Made by a program: the position numbers and the translations under genes | Shown here: positions 43,273-56,559 of the stretch, one piece after another | Numbering within the stretch: the stretch's first letter is position 1 | Layout: each line of letters begins with the position of its first letter | NCBI GenBank assembly: GCA_044239605.1 | Contig: JBIIBC010000003.1 | Span: 50,056-114,055 of the forward strand | Reading direction: 5' to 3' | Length of the DNA: 64,000 nucleotides | DNA from: Bacteroidia bacterium | GTDB lineage: Bacteria > Bacteroidota > Bacteroidia > UKL13-3 | Notes under the pieces: model-generated | The model's input: only the letters and a program-made list of their open reading frames with translations | Told to the model about the DNA's origin: nothing | The model's database searches: none

Positions 43273-44472
43273 CTATACTTTTTTGGCTTCAAACTTATCA
43301 AGCTCCATTAAAAAATCGCTAAATGAATTCATAAAATAAATATAAGCATCATAAGGACTCTCGTATGGGCTGAAATATTTATGAACATCGCCATCGCTCC
43401 AAAACTTGGTACACATGTAGTAAAAATGATCACTGGTTAGCATTTTTTGCCAAGTATCAATAATGGCTTTATCAGCTGTGGCATAAACTCTTTTTTCAAT
43501 AGAGTAAATTTTAGCTATGCTTTCATCCTGCATAGGGTTGCCAAGCCAAGCAGATAAATCTCGCTCCATATCAGCCCAACTTGTTAATTCGTGTGCATCG
43601 TACACATCTCTTGTAGGATAAGCAGCCACTGTTTCTGAAGGAGTTTTAAAAGAAAAATCTTTATGTTTTAAAATATACTCAGGCATGTGCCACATAAAAT
43701 CAAAAATACCAGTTTCGGCCCATTGGTGCTCACCAAAAGTTTCGTAATCCATAAACAAGTTAATGGTCTCGCCCTGGCCAGCAATAGAGTGACACCAACT
43801 AGCAAACTTATCGGCTGTTAAAGGCCAACTTTCCCACCCACGATTACTAAATCTAAAAGCTATATCATCGCTTAGTTGATAATTTTTAAGCAATGATTTT
43901 ATTTTAGTAACGTTTGGTGCTTGGTATAAATAATTGGGGGTTCTCCCTTTTAAAAGCCTATCTACCCCTTCACAAATAATGCCTTCGTAACCTAAATCTT
44001 CAATGAATTTGGCTAATTCATTATTATACTGCAATTCAGTATTTCTAAATACTTTAGGCGTATAGTTAAAATGTTTTTTTAACAATGCTTTGTGTTTTTC
44101 AACTTGCTTTACAAATTCATCTTTACTAAAAATATAAGCCAACGAATGATAATAAGTTTCACTTATAAACTCCACACAGCCAGTTGCTGCAAGGTCTTTA
44201 AAACTTTGCAATACATCGGGGCGCCAAGTTTCAAATTGCTCCAAAGCCACACCACTAATGGCATAACTTATTTTAAATTCGCCATTATGCTTTTTTATTA
44301 AATCAAGCATTAATTTATTAGTAGGCAAATAGCAGCGCTCGCTCACCTTATCTAACACTTGTCTGTTTTTTTCATCATCGTAATAATGATGGTTATTGCC
44401 AATATCAAAAAAAGTGTATTCCTTTAAACGATATGGTTGATGTACTTGAAAATAAAAACAAATTGATGGCAT
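43273..44472 (-). CDS. glycoside hydrolase family 57 (alpha-glucan-active enzyme)
   Basis: 399 aa. The N-terminal FQVHQPYR motif is diagnostic of GH57. Confidence 0.8.
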   Translation of the reverse strand: MPSICFYFQVHQPYRLKEYTFFDIGNNHHYYDDEKNRQVLDKVSERCYLPTNKLMLDLIKKHNGEFKISYAISGVALEQFETWRPDVLQSFKDLAATGCVEFISETYYHSLAYIFSKDEFVKQVEKHKALLKKHFNYTPKVFRNTELQYNNELAKFIEDLGYEGIICEGVDRLLKGRTPNYLYQAPNVTKIKSLLKNYQLSDDIAFRFSNRGWESWPLTADKFASWCHSIAGQGETINLFMDYETFGEHQWAETGIFDFMWHMPEYILKHKDFSFKTPSETVAAYPTRDVYDAHELTSWADMERDLSAWLGNPMQDESIAKIYSIEKRVYATADKAIIDTWQKMLTSDHFYYMCTKFWSDGDVHKYFSPYESPYDAYIYFMNSFSDFLMELDKFEAKKV

Positions 44473-44763
44473 AGGAGTATATTTTTGATTTATGAATTAT
44501 GATTTGTGAAATTGGTGAATTGCTTAATTGTTTATTCGATTAATTGTTTAATCGTTTAATTGCTTAACTGTTTAATTGTTATACTGTTGAATTGTTTATT
44601 CGTTTTATTGTTGAACTGTTATAGTGTTGAATTGCTTAATTGTTTATTCGATTAATTGTTTAGCTGTATTGTCATATTAACAAATCAACTTAATTAACTT
44701 TATTTACTTATAAACTTAATTAACTCCTTTAACTTATTAACTCCATTAACTAAATAAACCTCA
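44473..44763. repeat. degenerate 16-bp tandem repeat array (consensus TTAATTGTTTAWTCGW, about 10-12 units) followed by a TTAACT-rich sub-array; non-coding
   Basis: Hand alignment gives units at 44524, 44540, 44556, 44572, 44588, 44604, 44620, 44636 and 44652, all in a 16-bp register. A 34-bp block is repeated exactly at 44517 and 44629. There are stop codons in every frame. Confidence 0.8.
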
Positions 44764-46044
44764 TTAAGGAATAATCGACTCGTAAACTTCCATTACTTTT
44801 AAGGCTGTATTTTCCCAAGTAATGTGTTTTAGGTCTTCGTTTGCTTTATCTACCATTTCGGTGCTTAATCCATTATAATCAAGCGATGCAATGATGTATT
44901 GAGCTAATTTATGAGTATCCCAAAAGTCTATTTTTAATGAACTACTTAATACCTCCCCTGCTCCACTGGTTTTACTCATAATTACAGGTAAACCGTATTG
45001 CACAGCTTCTACTGCACTTAAACCAAAAGGCTCACTCATGCTAGGCATACAATACACATCACTTATTGCTAGCAGTTCATTTAATTTTTGCTTGTTTAAA
45101 AAGCCAGTAAAAAAGAATTTATCGCCTAAACCAAATGAGGCAATTTTTTCGATTAATGGTTTGTGTAAATCGCCACTGCCAGCCATTACAAACTTTACAT
45201 TTTTATGGTGTTGCAATACAATACGTGCAGCTTCTACAAAAAATTCAGGACCTTTTTGCATAGTTATCCGTCCAAAGAAAATAACTAATTTATCTTTATG
45301 CGGACTTTCTTTTACAGTATGTTTTACTGTTTCAACACCATTGTGAATGGGAGTAATTTTATATTCAGGAATGCCATAATGATGATGACAAATACTACCA
45401 GTATAATGACTTACAGGAATAACCCTATCGGCTAACTGCATAGCACGTTTTTCTAAATCATATACCCAATTTCTGCTATCGGCCCCTGAGCGGTCGTATT
45501 CGGTTGAATGCACATGCAAAACCATTGGTTTACCTGTAAGCATTTTTAATTCAATGGCAGGTAAAAAAGTCATCCAATCGTGTGCATGTATTACATCAAA
45601 CTCTTGCGTAAGCGCATACTGAACCGATATACGCGAAAATTCGATGGCCTTTTTTATAACATCGCCAGCGTATAATGCATCTATTTCAAAGGGTTCAATA
45701 TTATTATTATAAACTTCGTAAAACTTTTGGTTAATTGACTCGTGGTTATCTATTTTGGCATAAGGGTTTACACCCGCGTTAACCTGATATGAATTTAAAC
45801 CATGGTCACCATGTTTACTTGGTTTACTAAAAATCTCACGTAATTGCTCCCTACTAAAAGCATTTAACCCTATTAGTTCAATATTGGGTATTTTGAAATT
45901 GGGAACACTTTTGGGAATGATCATTTTTACATCAGCCAAAGGGGAAAGTGCTTTGCATAATCCCAAACAAGCTACACCCAATCCACCACTTATTACTGGC
46001 GGAAATTCCCATCCAAACATTAATACTTTAGGTCGTTTTTGCAT
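44764..46044 (-). CDS. family 4 glycosyltransferase (glycogen/alpha-glucan synthase-like, GT-B)
   Basis: 426 aa. GT-B fold with the conserved C-terminal E-x7-E region (MPSMSEPFGLSAVEA). Confidence 0.7.
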   Translation of the reverse strand: MQKRPKVLMFGWEFPPVISGGLGVACLGLCKALSPLADVKMIIPKSVPNFKIPNIELIGLNAFSREQLREIFSKPSKHGDHGLNSYQVNAGVNPYAKIDNHESINQKFYEVYNNNIEPFEIDALYAGDVIKKAIEFSRISVQYALTQEFDVIHAHDWMTFLPAIELKMLTGKPMVLHVHSTEYDRSGADSRNWVYDLEKRAMQLADRVIPVSHYTGSICHHHYGIPEYKITPIHNGVETVKHTVKESPHKDKLVIFFGRITMQKGPEFFVEAARIVLQHHKNVKFVMAGSGDLHKPLIEKIASFGLGDKFFFTGFLNKQKLNELLAISDVYCMPSMSEPFGLSAVEAVQYGLPVIMSKTSGAGEVLSSSLKIDFWDTHKLAQYIIASLDYNGLSTEMVDKANEDLKHITWENTALKVMEVYESIIP

Positions 46045-46120
46045 GTAGATATTTTAATTCAATTTTATTAAATTACTTCAAGCAATATATTTATTTCTAT
46101 TTCAAACTACAAAATGTTTT

Positions 46121-46149
46121 AAAAATATTATAAAATAAAACAACTAACT
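46121..46149 (+). repeat. left copy of a 29-bp direct repeat bounding the lipoprotein gene array
   Basis: AAAAATATTATAAAATAAAACAACTAACT. The partner at 48829-48858 differs at one position. Confidence 0.6.
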
Positions 46150-46192
46150 ATTTTAAATATGGTTGGTTTTTTACCAGATGTTATGCTGAGAG

Positions 46193-46340
46193 TTGCCTAT
46201 GGTTGGTGTTCTCACCAAACAATAACAGTTAAGTGCTTGTCTGAGATAAATAATTAGCAACTTATAAGTATCTATATTTTTTAGTTAATGCAAGGAGCTG
46301 TTTTTTTATATCAAAAAAGGTTGGTTAAAACACCAACCGC
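46193..46340. repeat. conserved intergenic element E1 (twin-hairpin element: terminator plus leader hairpin)
   Basis: Homologous to E2 and E3. Contains GGTTGGTG-TTCT-CACCAAAC (46201-46220) and GGTTGGTT-AAAA-CACCAACC (46319-46338). The second hairpin is followed on the minus strand by a U-run, so it acts as the terminator of the gene above it. Confidence 0.7.
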
Positions 46341-46348
46341 ATAGAAAT

Positions 46349-46957
46349 CTATAAAGTTAAAGTGTAAATAAGATTGCTATCTATTTGAATTTGAATTATA
46401 CCATATGATTTATTGTAAATTATTGGATTATTATTTTTTCCATAAATTTTAACTCCCAAAATCATTTTACTCCCACATTGTACTTGTAAATTGTATTTAC
46501 TTGTATTATTATAATATCCACTGTATGCCAAATGTGAATCACTAAAACTATTATTTATAATAACATCAGTATTTATTTCATGATACTCATTGTGATATAC
46601 CCAATAAAATAAATTAGACAAATTGAAATTATTTCCTTTATATTCTACATCCACCTGTTCAAAATTATAATTATCATATTCAGGGCAGTCCATACTAGTT
46701 ACACTATTTTTAGTGGTTTTTTTCATAAAGTTATTTTTACCTTGTCCTTTTAGAATAGCTGTATCACCTTGATTGCTAATAAATATTAGGGTTTCGTTGC
46801 CTGTGTATGGTATTTGTGCCTTAGTGTTATCATCTATTAAATAATTAAAATTTTTTGGGGTGTAATTACTGCCATTGCAGGGTTGCTTGCTGCATGCTGA
46901 AAATAACAAAAGTATAATTATTAAACTTTGGGTTTGAAATAGTTTGGCTGTTTTCAT
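46349..46957 (-). CDS. hypothetical lipoprotein, paralog 1 of 3
   Basis: The ORF extends to TTG 47002, but ATG 46957 gives MKTAKLFQTQSLIIILLLFSACSK, a lipoprotein signal with lipobox LFSAC. Clear similarity to 47157..47759 (IPYTGNETLIFISNQGDTAIL versus IPYIGNETLTFISNQGDTAIL). Confidence 0.6.
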   Translation of the reverse strand: MKTAKLFQTQSLIIILLLFSACSKQPCNGSNYTPKNFNYLIDDNTKAQIPYTGNETLIFISNQGDTAILKGQGKNNFMKKTTKNSVTSMDCPEYDNYNFEQVDVEYKGNNFNLSNLFYWVYHNEYHEINTDVIINNSFSDSHLAYSGYYNNTSKYNLQVQCGSKMILGVKIYGKNNNPIIYNKSYGIIQIQIDSNLIYTLTL

Positions 46958-46978
46958 ATGTTGTTTTTTAAAATTGTT

Positions 46979-47127
46979 TTTGCCTATAGTTAGTGTTCTC
47001 AAAAACCAAAACAGTTAAATGCAAGTTCTAAGATGAATAATTAGCAACTTAAGAGTATTTATAATTTTTAGTTTAATGCAATGAGTTATTTTTTTATATC
47101 AAAAAAGGTTGGTAAAACAATAATCGC
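46979..47127. repeat. conserved intergenic element E2 (decayed copy of the twin-hairpin element)
   Basis: Same backbone as E1 and E3, but both hairpins have lost complementarity: CACCAACC has become CAAAAACC in one and CAATAATC in the other. Confidence 0.65.
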
Positions 47128-47156
47128 AAGCAAAATAGTAGAATATTTTTTATTAT

Positions 47157-47759
47157 CTATTTAATTAAGGTGTAAGTTAAACTTGAATCAATTATAATAC
47201 TAAGTATACCCACATTCTTATTGTAAATAAATGCTGGTTTTCCATCTTCTCTATTAAAATTATATCCATTAATAATATTGCTCCCAACATTAATAGGACT
47301 ATTATATCTGCTTATATCATTATATACTCCAATATCTGCAAAATAATTTGCTTTGTCATTAATATTTACATTAATATATATGCTATTATACTTATCTATG
47401 TACATACTATAAATTACGTTAAATAAATTAAAATTGTTACCTTGATATTCAATATCTATGTGTTCGTATGAATAGTTATCTTCTTGAGGACATTCAGGGT
47501 TACTACTTACCTTTACTTTTTCCTTTAATATATAGTTATTTTTCCCTTGCCCAACTAAAATTGCCGTATCACCTTGGTTGCTAATAAATGTAAGGGTTTC
47601 GTTGCCTATGTATGGTATTTGTGATTTGGTGCTATCGGGTAATAAATAGTTAAAAGTTTTTGAGGTGTAATCGCTACAAGGGCTCTGTTTGCTGCAAGCT
47701 GCAAACAACAAAAGAAAAAGTAATAAACTTTGGGTTCGAAATTGTTTGGTTATTTTCAT
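47157..47759 (-). CDS. hypothetical lipoprotein, paralog 2 of 3
   Basis: ATG 47759 gives MKITKQFRTQSLLLFLLLFAACSK, a lipoprotein signal. The ORF tracker starts at TTG 47774. Confidence 0.6.
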   Translation of the reverse strand: MKITKQFRTQSLLLFLLLFAACSKQSPCSDYTSKTFNYLLPDSTKSQIPYIGNETLTFISNQGDTAILVGQGKNNYILKEKVKVSSNPECPQEDNYSYEHIDIEYQGNNFNLFNVIYSMYIDKYNSIYINVNINDKANYFADIGVYNDISRYNSPINVGSNIINGYNFNREDGKPAFIYNKNVGILSIIIDSSLTYTLIK

Positions 47760-47794
47760 GATATGAATTTTCAAATAATGGATAAATTACACAT

Positions 47795-47940
47795 TGCCTA
47801 TAGTTGGTGTTCTCACCAACCAAAACAGTTAAATGCAAGTTCTAAGATGAATAATAGAAACTTAAGAGTATTTATAATTTTTAATTTAATGCAAGGAGTT
47901 ATTTTTTTATATCAAAAAGGTTGGTGAAAACACCAACCGC
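47795..47940. repeat. conserved intergenic element E3 (intact twin-hairpin element)
   Basis: GTTGGTG-TTCT-CACCAAC (47803-47820) near the downstream gene start. GGTTGGTG-AAAA-CACCAACC (47919-47938) followed by a U-run on the minus strand is an intrinsic terminator for the upstream paralog. Confidence 0.7.
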
Positions 47941-47956
47941 AGGCAAAATATTCTTT

Positions 47957-48607
47957 TCATTTAGGTAAATAGTTAAACTCTGTATTTATTAAATTATTTT
48001 TTATTGAAAAGAAACCTTCTGTTTTATTAATGTATGACATTCCTGAAATAGAATCATTTAAATTATTAAATATGTATACTACATTCTTATATATTCTATT
48101 TCCTCTCTCAATACTATCAAAAAAAACTGTTCCGTTTTTAGAGCCAATCCTAAAGTCTCTAACTAAAAAATTTAATTCGTTAAATTTAACATTAATGACA
48201 TCTATGGCTCGGAAAGAAAATAAATTGGAATTAACATACCCATGCTCCACATCAAAACTCCCATTTCCTTTAGTAGTTATATAGGTATTGTGTATGGTTT
48301 GGTAGCAATCTTTATCGTAACCTGTGTTAGGGTTTCCCCAGCCATTTTCACAATACCAAGTAGTATCTGTTTTGGTTTTTACAAAGGTTAAGGTATCGCC
48401 TTTATCGCTTGTAAAGCTTATGGTATCAAAGGCAGGGTTAGTAAAATAAGGTGTTTGGTTTAACTGCGCTGCGGTTAGGTAATAATAATTGGTTTTGTGT
48501 TCCACTTTATCGTATTCTTCTTTTACGCAACTTTGCGTTAGCATAATTATTGTTATTATGCTTAGTAGTTTTAGTTTTATAATTATGGTATAGTTTAGTA
48601 TTTTCAT
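47957..48607 (-). CDS. hypothetical lipoprotein, divergent paralog 3 of 3
   Basis: 216 aa. Signal peptide with LTQSC lipobox. Shares the DTISFTSDKGDTLTF core with paralogs 1 and 2 but is more divergent. Confidence 0.5.
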   Translation of the reverse strand: MKILNYTIIIKLKLLSIITIIMLTQSCVKEEYDKVEHKTNYYYLTAAQLNQTPYFTNPAFDTISFTSDKGDTLTFVKTKTDTTWYCENGWGNPNTGYDKDCYQTIHNTYITTKGNGSFDVEHGYVNSNLFSFRAIDVINVKFNELNFLVRDFRIGSKNGTVFFDSIERGNRIYKNVVYIFNNLNDSISGMSYINKTEGFFSIKNNLINTEFNYLPK

Positions 48608-48828
48608 TGGTATATAGTTTTTTCAAATAATGGATAAATGACACCTTTAAGCATTACCTAAAAACAGGTATTTTTTATTAAAACAAACATTGGTAATTTT
48701 AATACCAATAGCAACACTGCATTTGTGGTATTTTACTTTAAAAACACAATGTACTATTTATTAGTAGTTTATATTTAAAATAAGCTTTAATAGTATGGTA
48801 AATAATATTTTACAAAATGGAAGTAGGT

Positions 48829-48858
48829 AAAAATATTATAAAATGAAACAACTAACTT
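48829..48858 (+). repeat. right copy of the 29-bp direct repeat bounding the lipoprotein gene array
   Basis: AAAAATATTATAAAATGAAACAACTAACTT. Confidence 0.6.
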
Positions 48859-48939
48859 ATAATTCTTGATAACTTAATTAGTTATTTTTTTATATAAATG
48901 TTTTATTGTGTTGGATTTTGAATTAAGATATTTACAACC

Positions 48940-51330
48940 ATGCTAACACAAACTAAATACTCTAGTAAATTTTACCCCGATGCAGTTACAGAGGTAAAAA
49001 AAGAAGGTAATTTCTTTATTTTTATTACCAGCGAAACCATTTTAGAAGCAAGAGTAATGACCGATAAAATTATTCGTTTTAGGTATGCTGCTGATGGTTT
49101 TTTTCAGAAAGATTTTAGTTATGCTGTTAGTAAATATTTTGATGAAAAATTGGTAGAACTTCATTTTTATGAAGATGATGGATTTTATTATATCCAAACA
49201 CAATCAATTACCGCCAAAATAAGTAAGGAAAACATGAAAATTACCATGCTTGATAGGCAAAATAATATTATTAGTGAAGATGAAGCAGGTTTTCATTGGC
49301 AACATTATTTGGTAAAAGGTGGTAAAATAAATTATTGCAGCAAAAAAATTCAACCCGATGAGTACTTTTATGGAATGGGCGATAAGCCCACCGAAATGAA
49401 CTTACGTGGTAAATATTTTGAAAACTATGGTATGGATACTTATGGTTTTCAAAAAGACCAAGACCCATTGTATAAAAACATTCCATTTTTTATGGGTGTG
49501 CATAGCAAAGGCGAAATTGGATATGGTATATTTTATGATAATTCTTTCCGTACCATTTTTGATTTTGGTAAAAGTAATGCTGATACCTTAAGTTTTTATG
49601 CACGTGGTGGCGAAATGAATTACTATTTCATTTACGGACCCGATTTGTTAAAAGTAGTAGAACAATATGCAAGCCTTACAGGTACGCCTGAACTGCCGCC
49701 AATGTGGAGTTTAGGTTACCATCAATGTAAGTGGAGTTATTACCCCGAAAGTAAAGTACGTGAAATTACTTCAGAGTTCAGAAAACGAAAAATCCCATGC
49801 GATGCCATTTATTTAGACATTGATTACATGGAAGGTTTCCGTTGTTTTACTTGGAGCAAAGAGTATTTTCCTGATCCTAAAAAAATGATCAGCGAACTTT
49901 CGGCTGATGGTTTTAAAACGGTTGTAATTATTGACCCGGGAATAAAAATAGACAAAGATTATTGGGTTTGGCAAGAAGCTATTGCCAAAGATTATTTCTG
50001 TAAAAGAGCAGATGGCACTTTAATGGAAGGCGATGTTTGGCCGGGTAAATGCCATTTCCCTGATTTTACCAATCCTGAAGTGCGCGAATGGTGGAGTGGT
50101 TTATTCAAAGGTTTAATTGAAGCAGGAGTGCGCGGAGTTTGGAACGATATGAACGAACCTGCCGTTTTTGAAATTGGCACTTTCCCTGAGGATGTTCGCC
50201 ATGATTACGATGGAAATCCTTGTAGCCACCGAAAAGCGCATAATGTATATGGTATGCAAATGGCAAGAGCTACCCAAAAAGGTATTAAACGTTATTTACA
50301 ACCTTTACGTCCTTTTGTAATTACACGTTCAGGATACAGTGGTTTGCAACGTTATTCAAGTGTATGGACAGGTGATAATATAGCTACTTGGGAGCATTTA
50401 TGGATTGCTAGTCAACAATGCTTGCGATTAAATATTTCGGGTGTATCGTTTTGCGGAAGCGATGTAGGCGGATTTATAGGCGAACCTGATGGTGAATTGT
50501 ATACACGTTGGATTCAATTAGCAGCTTTCCATCCGTTTTTCAGAACACATAGCGCAGGTAACGAAACTAAATTTGACCAAGAACCTTGGAGTTTTGGAAC
50601 CAAATACGAATACATTGTAAAAAAATTCATTCACCTACGCTACCAATTATTGCCATATATGTACACTGCATTTTGGCAAAACAGTACGTTTGGAACCCCC
50701 ATATTACGTCCATTAGCATTTATTGACCAAACCGACACTGAGACACTTTTCCGTAACGATGAGTTTGCCGTTGGCGATCATATTTTGGTTTGTCCTGTAA
50801 TGCGTCCCGGAATTACCGAACGCACTGTTTATTTGCCAAGAGGACGTTGGTTCAATATTTGGAACGATCATGAATACAATGGAGGTAAGGAACATATGGT
50901 GGGTTGTCCGCTTGATAGAATGCCTGTATTTATTAAAGCAGGTGCAGTTATTCCACAATGGCCGAAACAACAATATGTAGGCGAGTTAGATGTTTTAGAA
51001 ACCACATTACATGTTTATTTCAATAAGGAAAAAGAGGTAATTAGTTACCTTTACGAAGATGCGGGCGACAATTATGGCTACCGCATGGGATTGTACAACC
51101 TACATAAATTCTATGTAAAAGGAAACAGTAAAAACTTAATCCTTTCTCATATTTTAGAAGGTGCTTTTGAAAGTAATAAAACGTTTAAAGTGGTTGTTCA
51201 TGGATTGCCATTTACTTGCACTGAGTTTGTAGTAGATGGAAAAAGCCATAAAGTAACTGAAAAGAACTTAGCAGTAGGTACAGTTAAGTTTAAAATAGAT
51301 AGAGATTTTAAACGAGTGATACTAAGGTAA
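48940..51330 (+). CDS. glycoside hydrolase family 31 alpha-glucosidase
   Basis: 796 aa. GH31 catalytic nucleophile motif VWNDMNEP and the acid/base region WTGDN. Confidence 0.85.
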   Translation: MLTQTKYSSKFYPDAVTEVKKEGNFFIFITSETILEARVMTDKIIRFRYAADGFFQKDFSYAVSKYFDEKLVELHFYEDDGFYYIQTQSITAKISKENMKITMLDRQNNIISEDEAGFHWQHYLVKGGKINYCSKKIQPDEYFYGMGDKPTEMNLRGKYFENYGMDTYGFQKDQDPLYKNIPFFMGVHSKGEIGYGIFYDNSFRTIFDFGKSNADTLSFYARGGEMNYYFIYGPDLLKVVEQYASLTGTPELPPMWSLGYHQCKWSYYPESKVREITSEFRKRKIPCDAIYLDIDYMEGFRCFTWSKEYFPDPKKMISELSADGFKTVVIIDPGIKIDKDYWVWQEAIAKDYFCKRADGTLMEGDVWPGKCHFPDFTNPEVREWWSGLFKGLIEAGVRGVWNDMNEPAVFEIGTFPEDVRHDYDGNPCSHRKAHNVYGMQMARATQKGIKRYLQPLRPFVITRSGYSGLQRYSSVWTGDNIATWEHLWIASQQCLRLNISGVSFCGSDVGGFIGEPDGELYTRWIQLAAFHPFFRTHSAGNETKFDQEPWSFGTKYEYIVKKFIHLRYQLLPYMYTAFWQNSTFGTPILRPLAFIDQTDTETLFRNDEFAVGDHILVCPVMRPGITERTVYLPRGRWFNIWNDHEYNGGKEHMVGCPLDRMPVFIKAGAVIPQWPKQQYVGELDVLETTLHVYFNKEKEVISYLYEDAGDNYGYRMGLYNLHKFYVKGNSKNLILSHILEGAFESNKTFKVVVHGLPFTCTEFVVDGKSHKVTEKNLAVGTVKFKIDRDFKRVILR

Positions 51331-51502: not shown

Positions 51503-53716
51503 ATGAAACACAACCACCAAATTGTTAGATTAATTGAAGAGTTTTCAAAAGCATCAAACCATGTTTTAGACCACGTAGAACTTCAAAAAGCAAAGGCAAG
51601 ATATCAACAAAGCTTGTCTAATAATTTTGATATGTTTTATGAACAATTAATCAATATTGGAACTTTTGCCAAATATGCCTTTGAAATTAGAACTGCTACT
51701 AAGGGTGAATTCGAGGCGTTTCTCACTAAAAATACATTTCCAATAATTTATTTTAAAAAATCGCATAAAGACATAACTCCAGTTTTACTCAAACATTTTC
51801 AAAATAAAAGTTACCAAACTATTTCTTTTGAAGATGATAATGAGCAACGTACGGATTATAAAACAATTCATGAAATTGCTAGTGAAGCCAAAACTATAAA
51901 CCAATTAGTTTTGGAAAACGAATACCAAAATGAAAATGGAGAAACATACAATATTTTATTTATAACTGGCTTTCATATAGGCTCAATATTAAATAAAGAA
52001 CATAAAAAAGGCATCACTCCTTTTCAAAGATTTGTAAGTTTATTAAAAGCAGAAAAGAGAGATATAAAATACATTTATTTCTTTGCCATATTAATTGCCA
52101 TTATTAATTTAGCTTTGCCACTTGGTGTACAAGCTATAGTTGGTTTAATATCGGGTGGTTTATTATTAGAATCGGTAATTATTTTAATTGCCTTAGTAAT
52201 TGCTGCCACAGGCCTATCAGGTTATTTACAAATTCAGCAATTAAAAATGGTTGAAATATTACAACAACGTGTATTTGCAAATGTTACTTTTGAATTTGCT
52301 TGGCGATTACCACGCATAAAAATAGAGAGTTTACTTAAACATTATACACCCGAAATGGTAAATCGTTTTTTTGATGTTTTAAACGTTCAAAAATCGTTAC
52401 CTAAAATATTGATTGATTTAACAGCAGCTTTAATTCAAATACTATTTGGCTTATTGTTACTTTCACTTTACCATCCAGTTTTTATAGGTTTTGGATTTTT
52501 TATTTTAATTATCATACTCATAATCTTTTACACCACTGGAAAAAAAGCGCTTGAAACTAGTATTTACGAATCGAAATATAAATATAAAGTAGCTTATTGG
52601 TTGCAAGAAATTGGCAGAAGTATAACTTCGTTTAAACTCGCAGGAAACTCTAATTTACCTATACAAAAAGCAGATAATTTATTAGCGGATTATTTGAAAT
52701 ATAGAAATAAACACTTTACCATTTTGGTAAAACAATATGCTGCCATTGTATCATTTAAAACATTAATTACTGCTTCATTATTAATTTTAGGTAGTTTTTT
52801 GGTGGTAAATAGGCAAATTAATTTAGGCCAATTTGTAGCTGCTGAATTAATCATTGTTTTAATTATTAATTCAGTTGAAAAATTGATTTCTACCTTAGAA
52901 GTGGCTTACGATTTGCTAACAGCCTTAGATAAAATTGGTCACGTGACCGATTTAGAAACTGAAAGTAATGCAGGCCGTGAGTTACACGATTTAGAAATAG
53001 AACAAAAACTACTTTTAAAAACCACTAACCTAAGTTTTAAATACCCAAATAGTAAAAAAAGTACATTAACCAATGTAAACTTTGAAATTGGCAAAGGCGA
53101 AAGAATTGCTATAACTGGTCACAACGACAGCGGGAAAACTACTTTTATTAAAACACTTTCAGGTTTATATTGCAATTTTGAAGGTTCATTTACTTTAAAT
53201 GGAGTTTCGTTGCGAGAACTTAATATAGATTCATTTAGAGGAATAGTAGGAGATAACTTATCGCAAGATGATGTGTTTGAAGGTACCATTGAAGAAAATA
53301 TTGTAATGGGTCGCACTGGAATTGTTTTTAAAGATGTTATGACTGCGGTTGAAAATTCATGTTTAACGGACTTTTTAGCGCAATTAGAAGATGGATTACA
53401 AAGCAATGTAAACCCAGGTGGAACAAATTTCCCTAAAAGTGTTATCCAAAAAATATTATTAGCGCGCAGTTTTGTACAAAAACCCAAGCTTTTAATAATA
53501 GACGACTTTTTTTATAATATGAACCAAAAAGAAAGTGACACTTTAGTAAACAATATTTTTGATAATAAAGACTGGGCAATTGTTATTGTTTCATCGCAAG
53601 TGGGTATTTTAAAAAAATGTGACCGTATCTATTTAATGAATAATGGCACTTTTACTCAAACCGATACATTCCAAAACTTGAGCCAAAACAATATGTTAAG
53701 CGCATTTATTAATTAA
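51503..53716 (+). CDS. ABC exporter (N-terminal ~170-aa cytosolic domain, 6-TM transmembrane domain, C-terminal nucleotide-binding domain) with a highly degenerate ATPase site
   Basis: 737 aa. NBD motifs in order: P-loop GHNDSGKTT (canonical GxxGxGKS/T has G where this has D), signature PGGTN in place of LSGGQ, Walker B LLIIDD followed by F (no catalytic Glu), D-loop YNMN in place of SALD, and H-loop IVIVSSQ with no His. The N-terminal domain has no C39 Cys/His motif. Confidence 0.7.
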   Translation: MKHNHQIVRLIEEFSKASNHVLDHVELQKAKARYQQSLSNNFDMFYEQLINIGTFAKYAFEIRTATKGEFEAFLTKNTFPIIYFKKSHKDITPVLLKHFQNKSYQTISFEDDNEQRTDYKTIHEIASEAKTINQLVLENEYQNENGETYNILFITGFHIGSILNKEHKKGITPFQRFVSLLKAEKRDIKYIYFFAILIAIINLALPLGVQAIVGLISGGLLLESVIILIALVIAATGLSGYLQIQQLKMVEILQQRVFANVTFEFAWRLPRIKIESLLKHYTPEMVNRFFDVLNVQKSLPKILIDLTAALIQILFGLLLLSLYHPVFIGFGFFILIIILIIFYTTGKKALETSIYESKYKYKVAYWLQEIGRSITSFKLAGNSNLPIQKADNLLADYLKYRNKHFTILVKQYAAIVSFKTLITASLLILGSFLVVNRQINLGQFVAAELIIVLIINSVEKLISTLEVAYDLLTALDKIGHVTDLETESNAGRELHDLEIEQKLLLKTTNLSFKYPNSKKSTLTNVNFEIGKGERIAITGHNDSGKTTFIKTLSGLYCNFEGSFTLNGVSLRELNIDSFRGIVGDNLSQDDVFEGTIEENIVMGRTGIVFKDVMTAVENSCLTDFLAQLEDGLQSNVNPGGTNFPKSVIQKILLARSFVQKPKLLIIDDFFYNMNQKESDTLVNNIFDNKDWAIVIVSSQVGILKKCDRIYLMNNGTFTQTDTFQNLSQNNMLSAFIN

Positions 53717-53743
53717 TATTCCACTCCAATTTAAATTAACAAA

Positions 53744-55114
53744 ATGGATCAAAATCCTTATAATAATACCCTGAACGAATTTAAAAACACGAACCTTTAT
53801 ACCGTTCAATTGGTAAACACACCTAAAAAGTTTAAAACCATTAGAAATTGGCTTATTGGTATTTTTTCATTGGTGTTTTTAAGTTTGTTTTTGCCTTGGC
53901 AACAAAACATAAATGGAAAAGGAAAAGTTGCTCCTTTTGCCCCAGAAGATAGACCACAGAATGTTCCATCCATTATTGGTGGGAGAATTGAAAAATGGAA
54001 AGTCGTGGAAGGTCAATTTGTAAAAAAAGGGGATACTTTAGTAATTATTAGTGAGGTAAAAGAAAAGTTTTTCGACCCTGAATTATTAGCTAGAACCCAA
54101 AAACAAATTGTTAATAAAGAAGATGGTTTAAAGGCAAAAAATAGGAAAATAATAGCTTTAGAAAAACAAATAGATGCGCTTAAAAACAGCGTATCCATTA
54201 AGCTTAAAATGGCTAAAAATAAAGTGCTTCAATCCCAGTTTTTTGTTAAGGGCGAAAAAGCAAATTTAGATGCTGCCAAAACCAACGAGGAACTATCAAG
54301 AAATCAATATGAACGTTTAAATGAACTATACAAAAAAGGACTTGCCTCATTAACTGAAATTCAAAACAGAAACAACAAAATGCAAGAAACAAAGTCTAAG
54401 TCGATTGAAGCACAAAACAAATACGACAAAGCTGAGAATGAATTGATAAACGCGAGGATTGATTTAAACTTTATTGAAGCTGAATATTTAGATAAAATTT
54501 CGAAAGCAGAAAGTATTTTAGAAGAAACAGCTGGAGAACTTTTTGAAAGCCAAGCCGAACTTATCAAATTAAGAATAGAATACAGCAATTTATTGTTAAG
54601 AAGTGGATTTTATGCCATTAAAGCTCCTCAAGATGGTTATTTGGTGCAAGTTTTAAAAGCTGGTATTGGCGAAACTATTAAGGAAAATGAGAACCTCGCT
54701 ACCATTGTTCCTGCTAATACGAAAACTGCCGTTGAAATGACGGTAAGAGCTTTGGATATGCCACTTTTATACAAAGGCTGTAAAGTTCGTATTCAGTTTG
54801 ATGGTTGGCCTGCTTTAGTTTTTAGTGGTTGGCCAAGCGGAAGCGTTGGAACTTTTGGAGGTGTAGTTCAAGCCATTGATAGGAATGCTGATGAAAAAGG
54901 TAATTTTAGAATTTTGGTAGTACAAGATCCTAACGATGTGCCTTGGCCTGAATTGATTCGTGCAGGTGGAGGTATTTATGGTTGGGCTATGCTTAATAGA
55001 GTGCCTGTTTGGTACGAATTATGGCGTCAGTTTAATGCTTTTCCTCCCGATTTTATGGAAGAAGCCAACCAAATGAAAAAAGATGCAGATACCAAAACCA
55101 AAAAGGATAAATAA
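53744..55114 (+). CDS. HlyD-family membrane fusion protein (periplasmic adaptor)
   Basis: 456 aa. N-terminal TM anchor, biotinyl/lipoyl-like hairpin (GDTLVIISEV), a long coiled coil and a C-terminal beta-barrel domain. Confidence 0.75.
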   Translation: MDQNPYNNTLNEFKNTNLYTVQLVNTPKKFKTIRNWLIGIFSLVFLSLFLPWQQNINGKGKVAPFAPEDRPQNVPSIIGGRIEKWKVVEGQFVKKGDTLVIISEVKEKFFDPELLARTQKQIVNKEDGLKAKNRKIIALEKQIDALKNSVSIKLKMAKNKVLQSQFFVKGEKANLDAAKTNEELSRNQYERLNELYKKGLASLTEIQNRNNKMQETKSKSIEAQNKYDKAENELINARIDLNFIEAEYLDKISKAESILEETAGELFESQAELIKLRIEYSNLLLRSGFYAIKAPQDGYLVQVLKAGIGETIKENENLATIVPANTKTAVEMTVRALDMPLLYKGCKVRIQFDGWPALVFSGWPSGSVGTFGGVVQAIDRNADEKGNFRILVVQDPNDVPWPELIRAGGGIYGWAMLNRVPVWYELWRQFNAFPPDFMEEANQMKKDADTKTKKDK

Positions 55115-55116
55115 TC

Positions 55117-56559
55117 ATGAAACTAAAATTGATTCCATTTGGGTTAATACTTTGCATTTGCAATTCAATATCAGCACAAGATTCATCTGTATTTTCATTC
55201 CAAGATTTTTTTTCACAGGTAGTCAATTATCATCCTGTTTCAAAACAAGCTAATTTATTAACACAAAGTGCCAAGGCTGAATTATTAGCAGCTCGCGGGG
55301 CTTTTGACCCCGTAATTAGTACCAATTATGAAAACAAAACTACCGATGGAAAAAATAGCTATACTTACTTTGAACCTCAAATAAAAATACCAACCTTAAT
55401 TGGGTTAGATGTAAAAGCAGGTTATGACCAAAGCGATGGAATAGCAGTAAATAACGACCGTATAAAAATTTTAGAAAATAATGGCCAATATTTACCTCAG
55501 TATGGCGAATATGGAATGCTTTATGCTGGAGTAAATGTGCCTATTTTACGTGGTTTACAAACAGATGGACGTAGGGCTGCATTGCGCCAAGCACAGTATT
55601 TACAAGGACTGAACGAGGCCGAACGTGTTAAAGTAATTAATAAATTGCTTTTAAGTGCAGCCAAAGATTATTGGGAATGGCAATTAGCCTACGAAAAACT
55701 TAAACTAATGCAGCTAAGTTATAATTTGGCCGAAAACCGATTTAACTTTATAAGCAGCCGCATAAAAGGTGGCGAAGACAAACCTATTGATAGTGTAGAA
55801 GCATTGATTGAACTAAAACGCAGAGAAACGCTTCTATTGGAAACAGACGTTGAATTTAAAAACGCCAGTTTAAGCATCAGTAATTATTTATGGAGCAATA
55901 AAAATGAACCTTTACAATTGAAAGCAACGGTTTATCCTTCGGCAATTGGAACTGAACTTAAAAAGATAAGTAGTGACTCATTGCAACGCATGGTAAACTA
56001 TACCGAAGGTAATCATCCAGAATTGATGAAATTGCAGTTTAAAAATAAGCAATTACAAATTGATAGAAAGTTGGCCATTGAAAATATAAAGCCTCAACTT
56101 AATATTGAATATTATCCTTTTCAAACTTACAGCAAAGGCACTCAAAACGATGTAAACAATATTTTTAATCGACAGTATAAGTTTGGTGCAAGTTTTTACA
56201 GCAGTTTGTTTTTACGTAAAGAAAGAGGAAAACTGCAACAAGCCAATTTAAAACTAAAAAATATTGATTTTGAAGCCCAATTAACCAAACGAGAATTGGT
56301 TAATGAGGTTTTTGCTAATTATAACAACTTACTCAACCTAGAGCAGCTTATAGGAATTCAAGAAGTTTTGGTTAAAAATGCTTTCACACTGCGCGATGCT
56401 GAACAAACTAGGTTTGAAAACGGTGAAAGTTCACTGTTTTTAGTGAACACTCGCGAACGCAGTTTAATTGATGCTCAAATAAAACAAGCTGAAATTAAAA
56501 GTAAATACGCAAAAGCTAAGGTTCAATTACAGTGGGCAAGTGGAATTAGACTTTTTTAA
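55117..56559 (+). CDS. TolC-family outer membrane efflux protein
   Basis: 480 aa. Signal peptide and a two-repeat TolC architecture. Confidence 0.75.
   Translation: MKLKLIPFGLILCICNSISAQDSSVFSFQDFFSQVVNYHPVSKQANLLTQSAKAELLAARGAFDPVISTNYENKTTDGKNSYTYFEPQIKIPTLIGLDVKAGYDQSDGIAVNNDRIKILENNGQYLPQYGEYGMLYAGVNVPILRGLQTDGRRAALRQAQYLQGLNEAERVKVINKLLLSAAKDYWEWQLAYEKLKLMQLSYNLAENRFNFISSRIKGGEDKPIDSVEALIELKRRETLLLETDVEFKNASLSISNYLWSNKNEPLQLKATVYPSAIGTELKKISSDSLQRMVNYTEGNHPELMKLQFKNKQLQIDRKLAIENIKPQLNIEYYPFQTYSKGTQNDVNNIFNRQYKFGASFYSSLFLRKERGKLQQANLKLKNIDFEAQLTKRELVNEVFANYNNLLNLEQLIGIQEVLVKNAFTLRDAEQTRFENGESSLFLVNTRERSLIDAQIKQAEIKSKYAKAKVQLQWASGIRLF

Follow-up and report, generated by a model that had tools for sequence, protein, structure and literature searches.

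The locus and its repeated element

The sequence analyzed here, referred to as the window, is a stretch of 64,000 nt from a Bacteroidia bacterium (GTDB UKL13-3; assembly GCA_044239605.1, contig JBIIBC010000003.1, positions 50,056-114,055, forward strand). Three lipoprotein genes (par1, par2 and par3) are found in it between a GT4/GT5-type glycogen-synthase-like gene (hereafter GT4) and a GH31 alpha-glucosidase gene (Table 1), and the gap following each of them carries one copy of an element of approximately 150 bp: E3 after par3, E2 after par2 and E1 after par1. Because its arms were detected on 46 metagenome contigs, almost always in intergenic positions, and flank genes for REP-associated tyrosine transposases (RAYTs) of subclass 2.6, we consider with good confidence that this element is a REPIN-type repeat, i.e. 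a doublet of repetitive extragenic palindromic (REP) sequences.

A first-pass annotation, made from the sequence alone, had described par1, par2 and par3 as same-strand paralogs encoding lipoproteins, and this description held. All three are minus-strand open reading frames (ORFs) whose products have a signal peptide and a lipobox Cys. Identity was 54% between par1 and par2 and 23% between par3 and par1; the par1/par2 and par3 subfamilies were linked over their full length by profile-profile comparison, with par3 left out of both profiles (98.2% probability, E = 4.7e-14), and regarding the three predicted proteins as paralogs is justified.

The twin-hairpin element reported in each gap by the same annotation, including the copy 5' of GT4, was also recovered. 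It is formed by two palindromes, GGTTGGTG-N4-CACCAACC, in inverted orientation and separated by a 97-nt spacer, with 151 nt from foot to foot; in each arm a TGCCT foot and two variable bases precede the palindrome. Each hairpin forms the central part of a longer terminal inverted repeat (27-30 nt) running into TTGCCT...AGGCAA, which the first-pass annotation had not noted, and the two 28-nt arms of E3, 97 nt apart, are 86% complementary. Allowing up to three mismatches, the palindrome occurred four times in the window, with 0.07 occurrences expected, and every one of them was at this locus. Folding energies of the arms were -13.5 (upstream arm of E3), -14.5 and -11.5 kcal/mol (upstream arm of E1). 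With respect to E3, E2 showed 9 changes in 56 arm nt and 4 changes in 97 spacer nt. All three copies lie between ORFs, in the same orientation and just past a stop codon. The remnant of a further arm, situated between E1 and a 30-bp direct repeat that brackets the array, was better kept in a closely related strain (AACCAACCATAGGCAAAA in contig L142), where it directly touches this repeat.

Table 1. Features of the lipoprotein array and its flanks (positions in the window).
Feature	Position	Strand	Description
GT4/GT5-type glycogen-synthase-like gene	44764-46044	-	One flank of the insertion; GH57 gene next after
19-nt leader TTGAATTAARATATYTACA, before GT4 ATG	46044-46062	-	17/19 identical to the other copy; unique in the window
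Direct repeat copy 1, GT4 side	46120-46149	+	Ends 75 nt 5' of GT4 ATG
REP arm remnant CTGGTAAAAAACCAACCATA	46160-46180	-	Between E1 and the direct repeat
E1	about 46194-46347	-	REPIN copy 3' of par1; upstream arm with 7-bp stem and T6; downstream arm with one mismatch
par1	46349-46957	-	202-aa lipoprotein
E2	about 46981-47134	-	REPIN copy; both palindromes decayed
par2	47157-47759	-	200-aa lipoprotein
E3	47795-47945	-	Intact REPIN-like doublet; upstream arm 47945-47919 followed by T5; downstream arm 47821-47795
par3	47957-48607	-	216-aa lipoprotein, distant paralog of par1/par2, all-beta
par3 native upstream region	48608-48701	-	Conserved in homologues located elsewhere (L089, L141, L142)
Direct repeat copy 2, GH31 side	48828-48857	+	82 nt 5' of GH31 ATG
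19-nt leader TTGAATTAARATATYTACA, before GH31 ATG	48918-48936	+	17/19 identical to the other copy; unique in the window
GH31 alpha-glucosidase gene	48940-51330	+	Other flank of the insertion; adjoins GT4 in relatives

Distribution of the arms and association with RAYT genes

The JGI metagenome collection was scanned with a single arm, TGCCTNNRGTTGGTGTTNTCACCA, containing about 20.5 specified bases. Matches were obtained on 46 contigs of freshwater, soil and marine origin, with GC contents from 29 to 54%. On most of these contigs an arm was followed by a spacer of approximately 12-97 nt and an inverted arm, giving 19 doublets when the window and the metagenome loci were taken together. Contigs other than that of the window held two to five arms each. 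Outside the window, 59 of the 64 palindromes fell outside ORFs of at least 150 aa, although such ORFs account for 78% of the bases in those loci.

A RAYT gene bracketed by the arms was present on three contigs, corresponding to two distinct loci (L097 together with the nearly identical L124, and L121). The 183-aa ORF of L097/L124 scored 85.4 bits against the NCBIfam model NF047646, REP-associated tyrosine transposase (cut-off 80), and the motifs NHIH and YIHNNP of the L097 protein, as well as its length, match those of TnpA-REP subclass 2.6 (Bertels group 5). Members of this subclass, known from Bacteroidetes, have been described as proteins of 179 aa with the motifs NH[LIV]H and YIH[QN]NP, "flanked by atypical secondary structures" (Quentin et al. 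2018, PMC6006769). In agreement with that description, the structures flanking the L097 gene are non-canonical and have copies elsewhere. The RAYT of L121 is frameshifted, 51% identical to the L097 protein, and located between inverted arms, one of which matches the E3 upstream arm except at a single base and carries the T-run as well. No sequence relative of the L097 RAYT was found in the PDB at E <= 0.01.

Positions 600-1735 of L097 form a REPtron-like cluster, in which a full doublet, the RAYT gene, a single arm and several tandem doublets spaced by about 20 nt were recognized. At 1372-1412 of this contig, one doublet has extra sequence inside a hairpin loop.

The stem of the arms was examined in 52 distinct sequences. 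The 10-bp stem was paired in 90% of the cells, and double-sided changes were found in 34 stem cells, with respect to 12 ± 3 in shuffled data (none of 500 shuffles was as high); they include the replacement of T-A by C-G in columns 11 and 24 of the alignment (stem position 6), as well as changes at the two variable bases adjacent to the foot. The 20-nt REP core was the same on contigs with GC contents of 29-54% (L090-L135) and beside RAYTs with 51% identity to each other (L097 and L121). The conservation of this REP family across the contigs looks unusually broad; REPs of Proteobacteria are said to be lineage-specific. Bacteroidota loci retrieved by homology to GT4 or to the lipoproteins, 1.25 Mb in total, had essentially no arms, and the repeat is thus lineage-restricted rather than universal. 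A Y1_Tnp (PF01797) gene at 20099-20536 of contig L136, about 10 kb from a par3-like gene, had no arms of the family in the 20.6 kb fetched.

The organization of these loci resembles that of the REPIN-RAYT system of Pseudomonas fluorescens SBW25 (Bertels & Rainey 2011, PMC3116915) and of the REPs and bacterial interspersed mosaic elements (BIMEs) of Escherichia coli with their TnpA-REP: two inverted, extragenic REP palindromes form a larger hairpin, the same REPs lie on both sides of a single-copy Y1 transposase gene, there is no target duplication, and doublets occur in tandem clusters (here, in L097). Many doublets combine a GGTTGG/CCAACC arm with a GGTCGG/CCGACC arm, and this pairing of a T-type and a C-type variant recalls the Y and Z REP types of E. 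coli BIMEs. Unlike those systems, the present one has a Bacteroidota host, a TGCC foot instead of GTAG, a spacer of 97 nt, a T-run on the upstream arm, and a core that stays constant over the GC range and the RAYT divergence given above. The cognate enzyme of the family would be a Bacteroidota RAYT from subclass 2.6 (group 5); such Y1 HUH enzymes recognise the hairpin together with the foot on single-stranded DNA.

The contigs provide a concrete REP/REPIN consensus for this little-studied RAYT subclass, namely TGCCT-NN-GGTYGGTG-N4-CACCRACC in inverted doublets. The searchable open literature describes the partner of subclass 2.6 only as "atypical secondary structures": the searchable text and supplements of PMC6006769 contain no sequence for these structures, and a search with the palindrome sequence retrieved nothing relevant from the searchable literature or supplements. 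The doublet, the consensus and the terminator-like variant described below come from the metagenome contigs. The consensus could be used for annotating the repeats in metagenome-assembled genomes of freshwater and soil Bacteroidota, where they would otherwise be mistaken for regulatory hairpins or assembly problems.

Two further candidates were rejected. TIRYT elements (subclass 2.1, GGGG[AT][CG]A[CG] repeats) did not fit, and neither did an integron attC cassette: by inspection, CACCAAC and GTTGGTG deviate from the core consensus RYYYAAC / GTTRRRY, and no integrase-like ORF is present in or next to the array.

Origin of the copies and alternative explanations

A number of observations weigh against the assignment to a REPIN, or against its movement and general role at this locus. 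The foot is TGCCT(NN) and not the canonical tetranucleotide GTAG/GTGG (or CGTC), a departure that nevertheless agrees with the "atypical" structures published for subclass 2.6. The 64-kb window contains no RAYT gene and no copy of the element beyond the 3-kb locus (where three copies and one remnant are present), and the 97-nt spacer was found at no other locus; mobility inside this particular genome is consequently no more than possible. Paralogous copies are 82-90% identical, while orthologous copies between strains are 86-91% identical, a similarity that fits concerted evolution as well as recent transposition. Likewise, the shared orientation and the position after stop codons would also result from co-duplication followed by gene conversion. 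A T-run is present in E1, E2, E3, L121 and L133, and it was found in just 2 of the 64 arms elsewhere, so that a terminator role would be specific to one subfamily. Finally, the 30-bp duplication flanking the array would not be accounted for by RAYT or IS200-type enzymes, which produce no target duplication.

Several of these points are shared by an account in which the copies were never mobile here, and a single intergenic segment, perhaps an old REPIN, was tandemly duplicated together with the genes and later homogenised by gene conversion. Common orientation and post-stop position, regular unit spacing (788 and 813 bp), a spacer private to the locus, the comparable likeness of paralogous and orthologous copies, and a window devoid of RAYT would all be expected from it. 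We regard this account, which concerns the origin of the copies and not the identity of the element, as possible but rather doubtful. E3 and E2 are 90% identical, whereas par3 retains 23% identity to par1/par2 with saturated dS: K was 0.10 between E2 and E3 and 0.18 between E1 and either of them, while dS was 0.80 between par1 and par2, higher than 1.3 between par2 and par3, and saturated between par3 and the others. Furthermore, the block of high identity ends sharply at the arm ends, and the par3 ortholog of contig L141 (91% identical) lacks the element, its homology to the window breaking exactly at the foot of the E3 upstream arm, between ...AATATTT and TGCCTGCGG. The low divergence of the elements, the sharp boundaries at the arm ends and the break in L141 favour later spread or homogenisation over simple co-duplication.

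The other alternatives concern what the element is. That it constitutes a dedicated cis-regulatory module of the paralogs, with hairpin 1 as terminator and hairpin 2 as a leader structure controlling stability, processing or translation, was the proposal of the first-pass annotation, and it now seems improbable. Hairpin 1 of E3 and E1 does suit an intrinsic terminator, and hairpin 2 does precede the next start codon, at 42 nt from the ATG of par2 (E3) and 30 nt from that of par1 (E2); the distance in E1, however, is 156 nt to the ATG of GT4, and the spacing of 20-30 nt that had been annotated was not sustained. Moreover, the arms decay freely (4 of 10 across two strains, counted by reading the sequences), and on the 46 contigs the same arms are found around transposase genes and in unrelated intergenic sites, which speaks against an element wired to these genes. 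Nor is the hairpin exclusive to the array, since in L133 an unrelated HepT-like gene is followed, 13 nt past its stop codon, by the same arm with its T-run; such an occurrence beside unrelated genes had been named by the first-pass annotation itself as an outcome refuting its proposal. The motif CCATTATTTGAAAA is located 3' of hairpin 2 and, if it serves as promoter, the resulting transcript would not include hairpin 2. The tempting reading of a bespoke twin-hairpin regulator of glycan-binding lipoproteins is in this way replaced by a known kind of repeat. The length of about 150 bp, the intergenic position and the terminal inverted repeats of 27-30 nt would also agree with a miniature inverted-repeat transposable element that arose from a common DDE-type insertion sequence and has no relation to RAYT. 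This origin is very unlikely, as no target-site duplication was seen by inspection beside E1, E2 or E3, no DDE transposase was found in association with these ends, the gene bracketed by arms is a RAYT on three contigs (two distinct loci), and each arm is itself a palindrome with a covarying stem, a signature of REPs and not of insertion sequence ends. Equally hard to credit is a function at the RNA level, in which the arms would pair over about 28 bp in read-through transcripts and yield an RNase III site or a small RNA between cistrons. The minimum-free-energy fold of the whole E3 is indeed a long-range stem (-51.4 kcal/mol, z = -8), but the folds of E1 and E2 surpassed shuffled controls slightly or not at all (z = -2.5 and -0.4, respectively). 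Covariation maintains the local hairpins, and at other loci the differences between GGTTGG/CCAACC and GGTCGG/CCGACC arms keep each local stem while introducing a mismatch in the long-range one. In addition, a terminator in the first arm should end most transcripts before the second, and no Rfam family was matched at E <= 1 across 44000-50000 (at gathering scores, one tRNA was the only match in the whole window).

Predicted role of the element at the locus

In the terminator scan, the upstream arms of E3 (8-bp stem, T5) and E1 (7-bp stem, T6) were the top two candidates. Both combine a stem-loop and a U-run 3' of a stop codon, which makes the intrinsic terminator proposed by the first-pass annotation credible, and we slightly favour the view that the upstream arm of the REPIN terminates transcription of the preceding gene. 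The loss of both stems noted earlier for E2 was borne out, with folding energies of 0 and -5 kcal/mol. Its upstream arm (0 kcal/mol) does not have the features of a terminator, and the decay of this arm is common to the window and to strain L140; par2 consequently is likely to read through into par1. Neisseria Correia elements and enterobacterial REP/BIME sequences are small repeats that act as terminators or mRNA stabilisers. The present element is similar to them in being a small intergenic inverted repeat that provides the preceding gene with a 3'-terminal stem-loop, and differs from them in its canonical T-run, for which simple intrinsic termination would be expected.

The downstream arm would represent just the other end of the element, without a dedicated leader function. 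A copy of CCATTATTTGAAAA is present in the par3 upstream region, 15-27 nt 5' of the ATG, and a further copy precedes par2 at 47768-47795; no other motif was conserved ahead of par3, par2 and the L089 homologue. The downstream arm lies 5' of CCATTATTTGAAAA and, if this motif is a promoter, it would not be part of the leader. The sigma-70 promoter scan was at background level (56 sites vs. 49.9 expected), and this consensus does not apply to Bacteroidota. By eye, no convincing TAnnTTTG box was recognized in the spacers, and the promoter-like character annotated for them was not substantiated.

The array as a strain-variable insertion

The array had been proposed to be an inserted and expanded cassette, and both parts of this proposal are supported by the comparison with related genomes. 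GH31 and GT4 are adjacent and divergent, approximately 100-170 bp apart, in the three closest GTDB genomes (GT4 65-70% identical), which points to an insertion in the window; without the insert, what is left (75 nt next to GT4, one copy of the 30-bp repeat and 82 nt next to GH31) totals 187 bp, as expected for a spacer of this kind. The number of lipoprotein genes in close strains was one (L142/L143, a par3-like pseudogene), at least two (L140) and three (the window). The array is accordingly a strain-variable and expandable insertion between two glycogen genes. No close strain with an empty GH31-GT4 site was found, and the intergenic DNA of the nearest relatives (L009-L011) was too diverged for seeking a single copy of the 30-bp repeat.

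The bracketing direct repeat, first annotated as 29 bp with 28/29 identical positions, was found to span 30 bp with 29/30 identical positions, and is unique in the window. The similarity ends at 30 bp, an apparent longer MAFFT alignment being no better than shuffled sequence. The copies of the 19-nt leader before GT4 and GH31 lie 57 and 60 nt from the respective copies of the repeat, which suggests that the ancestral GH31-GT4 spacer may have been a symmetric, co-regulated divergent promoter region with the 30-bp box at its centre. The box might tentatively be viewed as a regulatory site once shared by GT4 and GH31, kept in two copies because each gene needs it.

On contig L140, the order is the end of par2, E2, par1, E1, the 30-bp box and the GT4 upstream region, where the contig ends. 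On L142 and L143, a par3-like pseudogene is followed by a truncated upstream arm, an insert of about 420 bp, one REPIN, the arm remnant, the box and GT4, while par2 and par1 are absent. At L142 755-1190 (and also in L143), the arm after the par3-like gene is broken off after TTGCCTGCTGTTG by the approximately 420 bp of foreign DNA, whose translation weakly matched the extreme C-terminus of IS110-family transposases (NF033542, E = 0.006, 15.7 bits, far below the cut-off). IS110 elements target REP sequences.

With their direct orientation and 82-90% identity, the ca. 150-bp copies could act as substrates for recombination or gene conversion, leading to gain and loss of array genes. In L142, the insertion terminates towards GT4 in a REP arm, whose outer foot directly touches the 30-bp duplication, a junction that would be compatible with entry of the array through an event mediated by REP ends. 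A broader scenario, in which REPINs assemble, expand and contract hypervariable lipoprotein arrays, one REP family is kept across much of Bacteroidota, one of its subfamilies serves as a portable terminator and the 2.7-kb array entered by such a REP-end-mediated event, is speculative and, taken as a whole, unlikely. In any case, strains of a natural population differ at this repeat-rich site through the gain and loss of hypervariable lipoprotein genes.

The lipoprotein family

Lipoproteins of the par1/par2 type are rare, being found in 15 of 5.8 billion clusters, all of them of freshwater Bacteroidia, while the par3 type is more common (at least 173 clusters) and belongs to a larger Bacteroidota family. 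None of the three proteins matched a Pfam family at E <= 0.1, and a profile search of PDB sequences with the lipoproteins gave no results. The glycan-binding role of SusE/F type that had been suggested for them found no support in sequence or fold: SusE/SusF or carbohydrate-binding module domains were absent by sequence from all three, and a beta-sandwich fold resembling such modules was not found. PDB entry 4fvs, the putative lipoprotein BDI_3050 of Parabacteroides distasonis, was matched at 6% identity, a match that is uninformative on ligand or role. BamJ (NCBIfam NF053689) was considered and rejected, as the scores of 19.8 and 16.6 bits were far from reaching the cut-off (100) and par3 gave no match.

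A conserved linkage to SusC/SusD or to glycan genes was not seen, and relatives keep GH31-GT4 without the array. Homologues elsewhere were also found in tandem arrays, at other loci and near type IX secretion genes: 4 nt 5' of a gene for a 1919-aa type IX secretion substrate with a Por_Secre_tail domain (L002 and L089), and beside a gene recognized by eye as PorV-like, at a NifU/Mrp locus (one copy in L136 and three in L139). The three copies of L139 (8665-10660) are tightly spaced par3-like genes whose N-terminal halves (about 110 aa) are almost the same and whose C-terminal halves look unrelated; they adjoin the PorV/PorQ-like gene (by eye) and a gene for a 412-aa lipoprotein, the single copy of L136 being at the same site. 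A comparable pattern was observed within the family in general, with conserved N-terminal and hypervariable C-terminal halves: between par1 of the window and L140, DNA identity was 96% over the first 270 nt (N-terminal half) and 75% over the rest (C-terminal half). Based on these sequences, the lipoproteins are fast-evolving and probably envelope-exposed.

The residues following the lipobox Cys differ between types, with an acidic C-x-K-E-E-Y-D-K in the par3 type and C-S-K-Q-(S)-P-C in par1/par2. The lipoprotein export signal of Bacteroidota is K-(D/E)2. The par3 product may be surface-exposed, and those of par1 and par2 perhaps not.

In the regions L002 9780-9983 and 10628-16387, L089 709-1338 and L141 885-975, short ORFs copying the N-terminus of the giant type IX substrate (MKKII...GQNCQFEES...) were observed between lipoprotein copies, which points to a tandem duplication breakpoint inside the large substrate gene; in L089, this large gene has an in-frame stop. 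Beyond GH31, the window (51503-56559) contains a 737-aa ORF, which by eye resembles an ABC-type exporter with an additional N-terminal domain, and ORFs of 456 and 480 aa.

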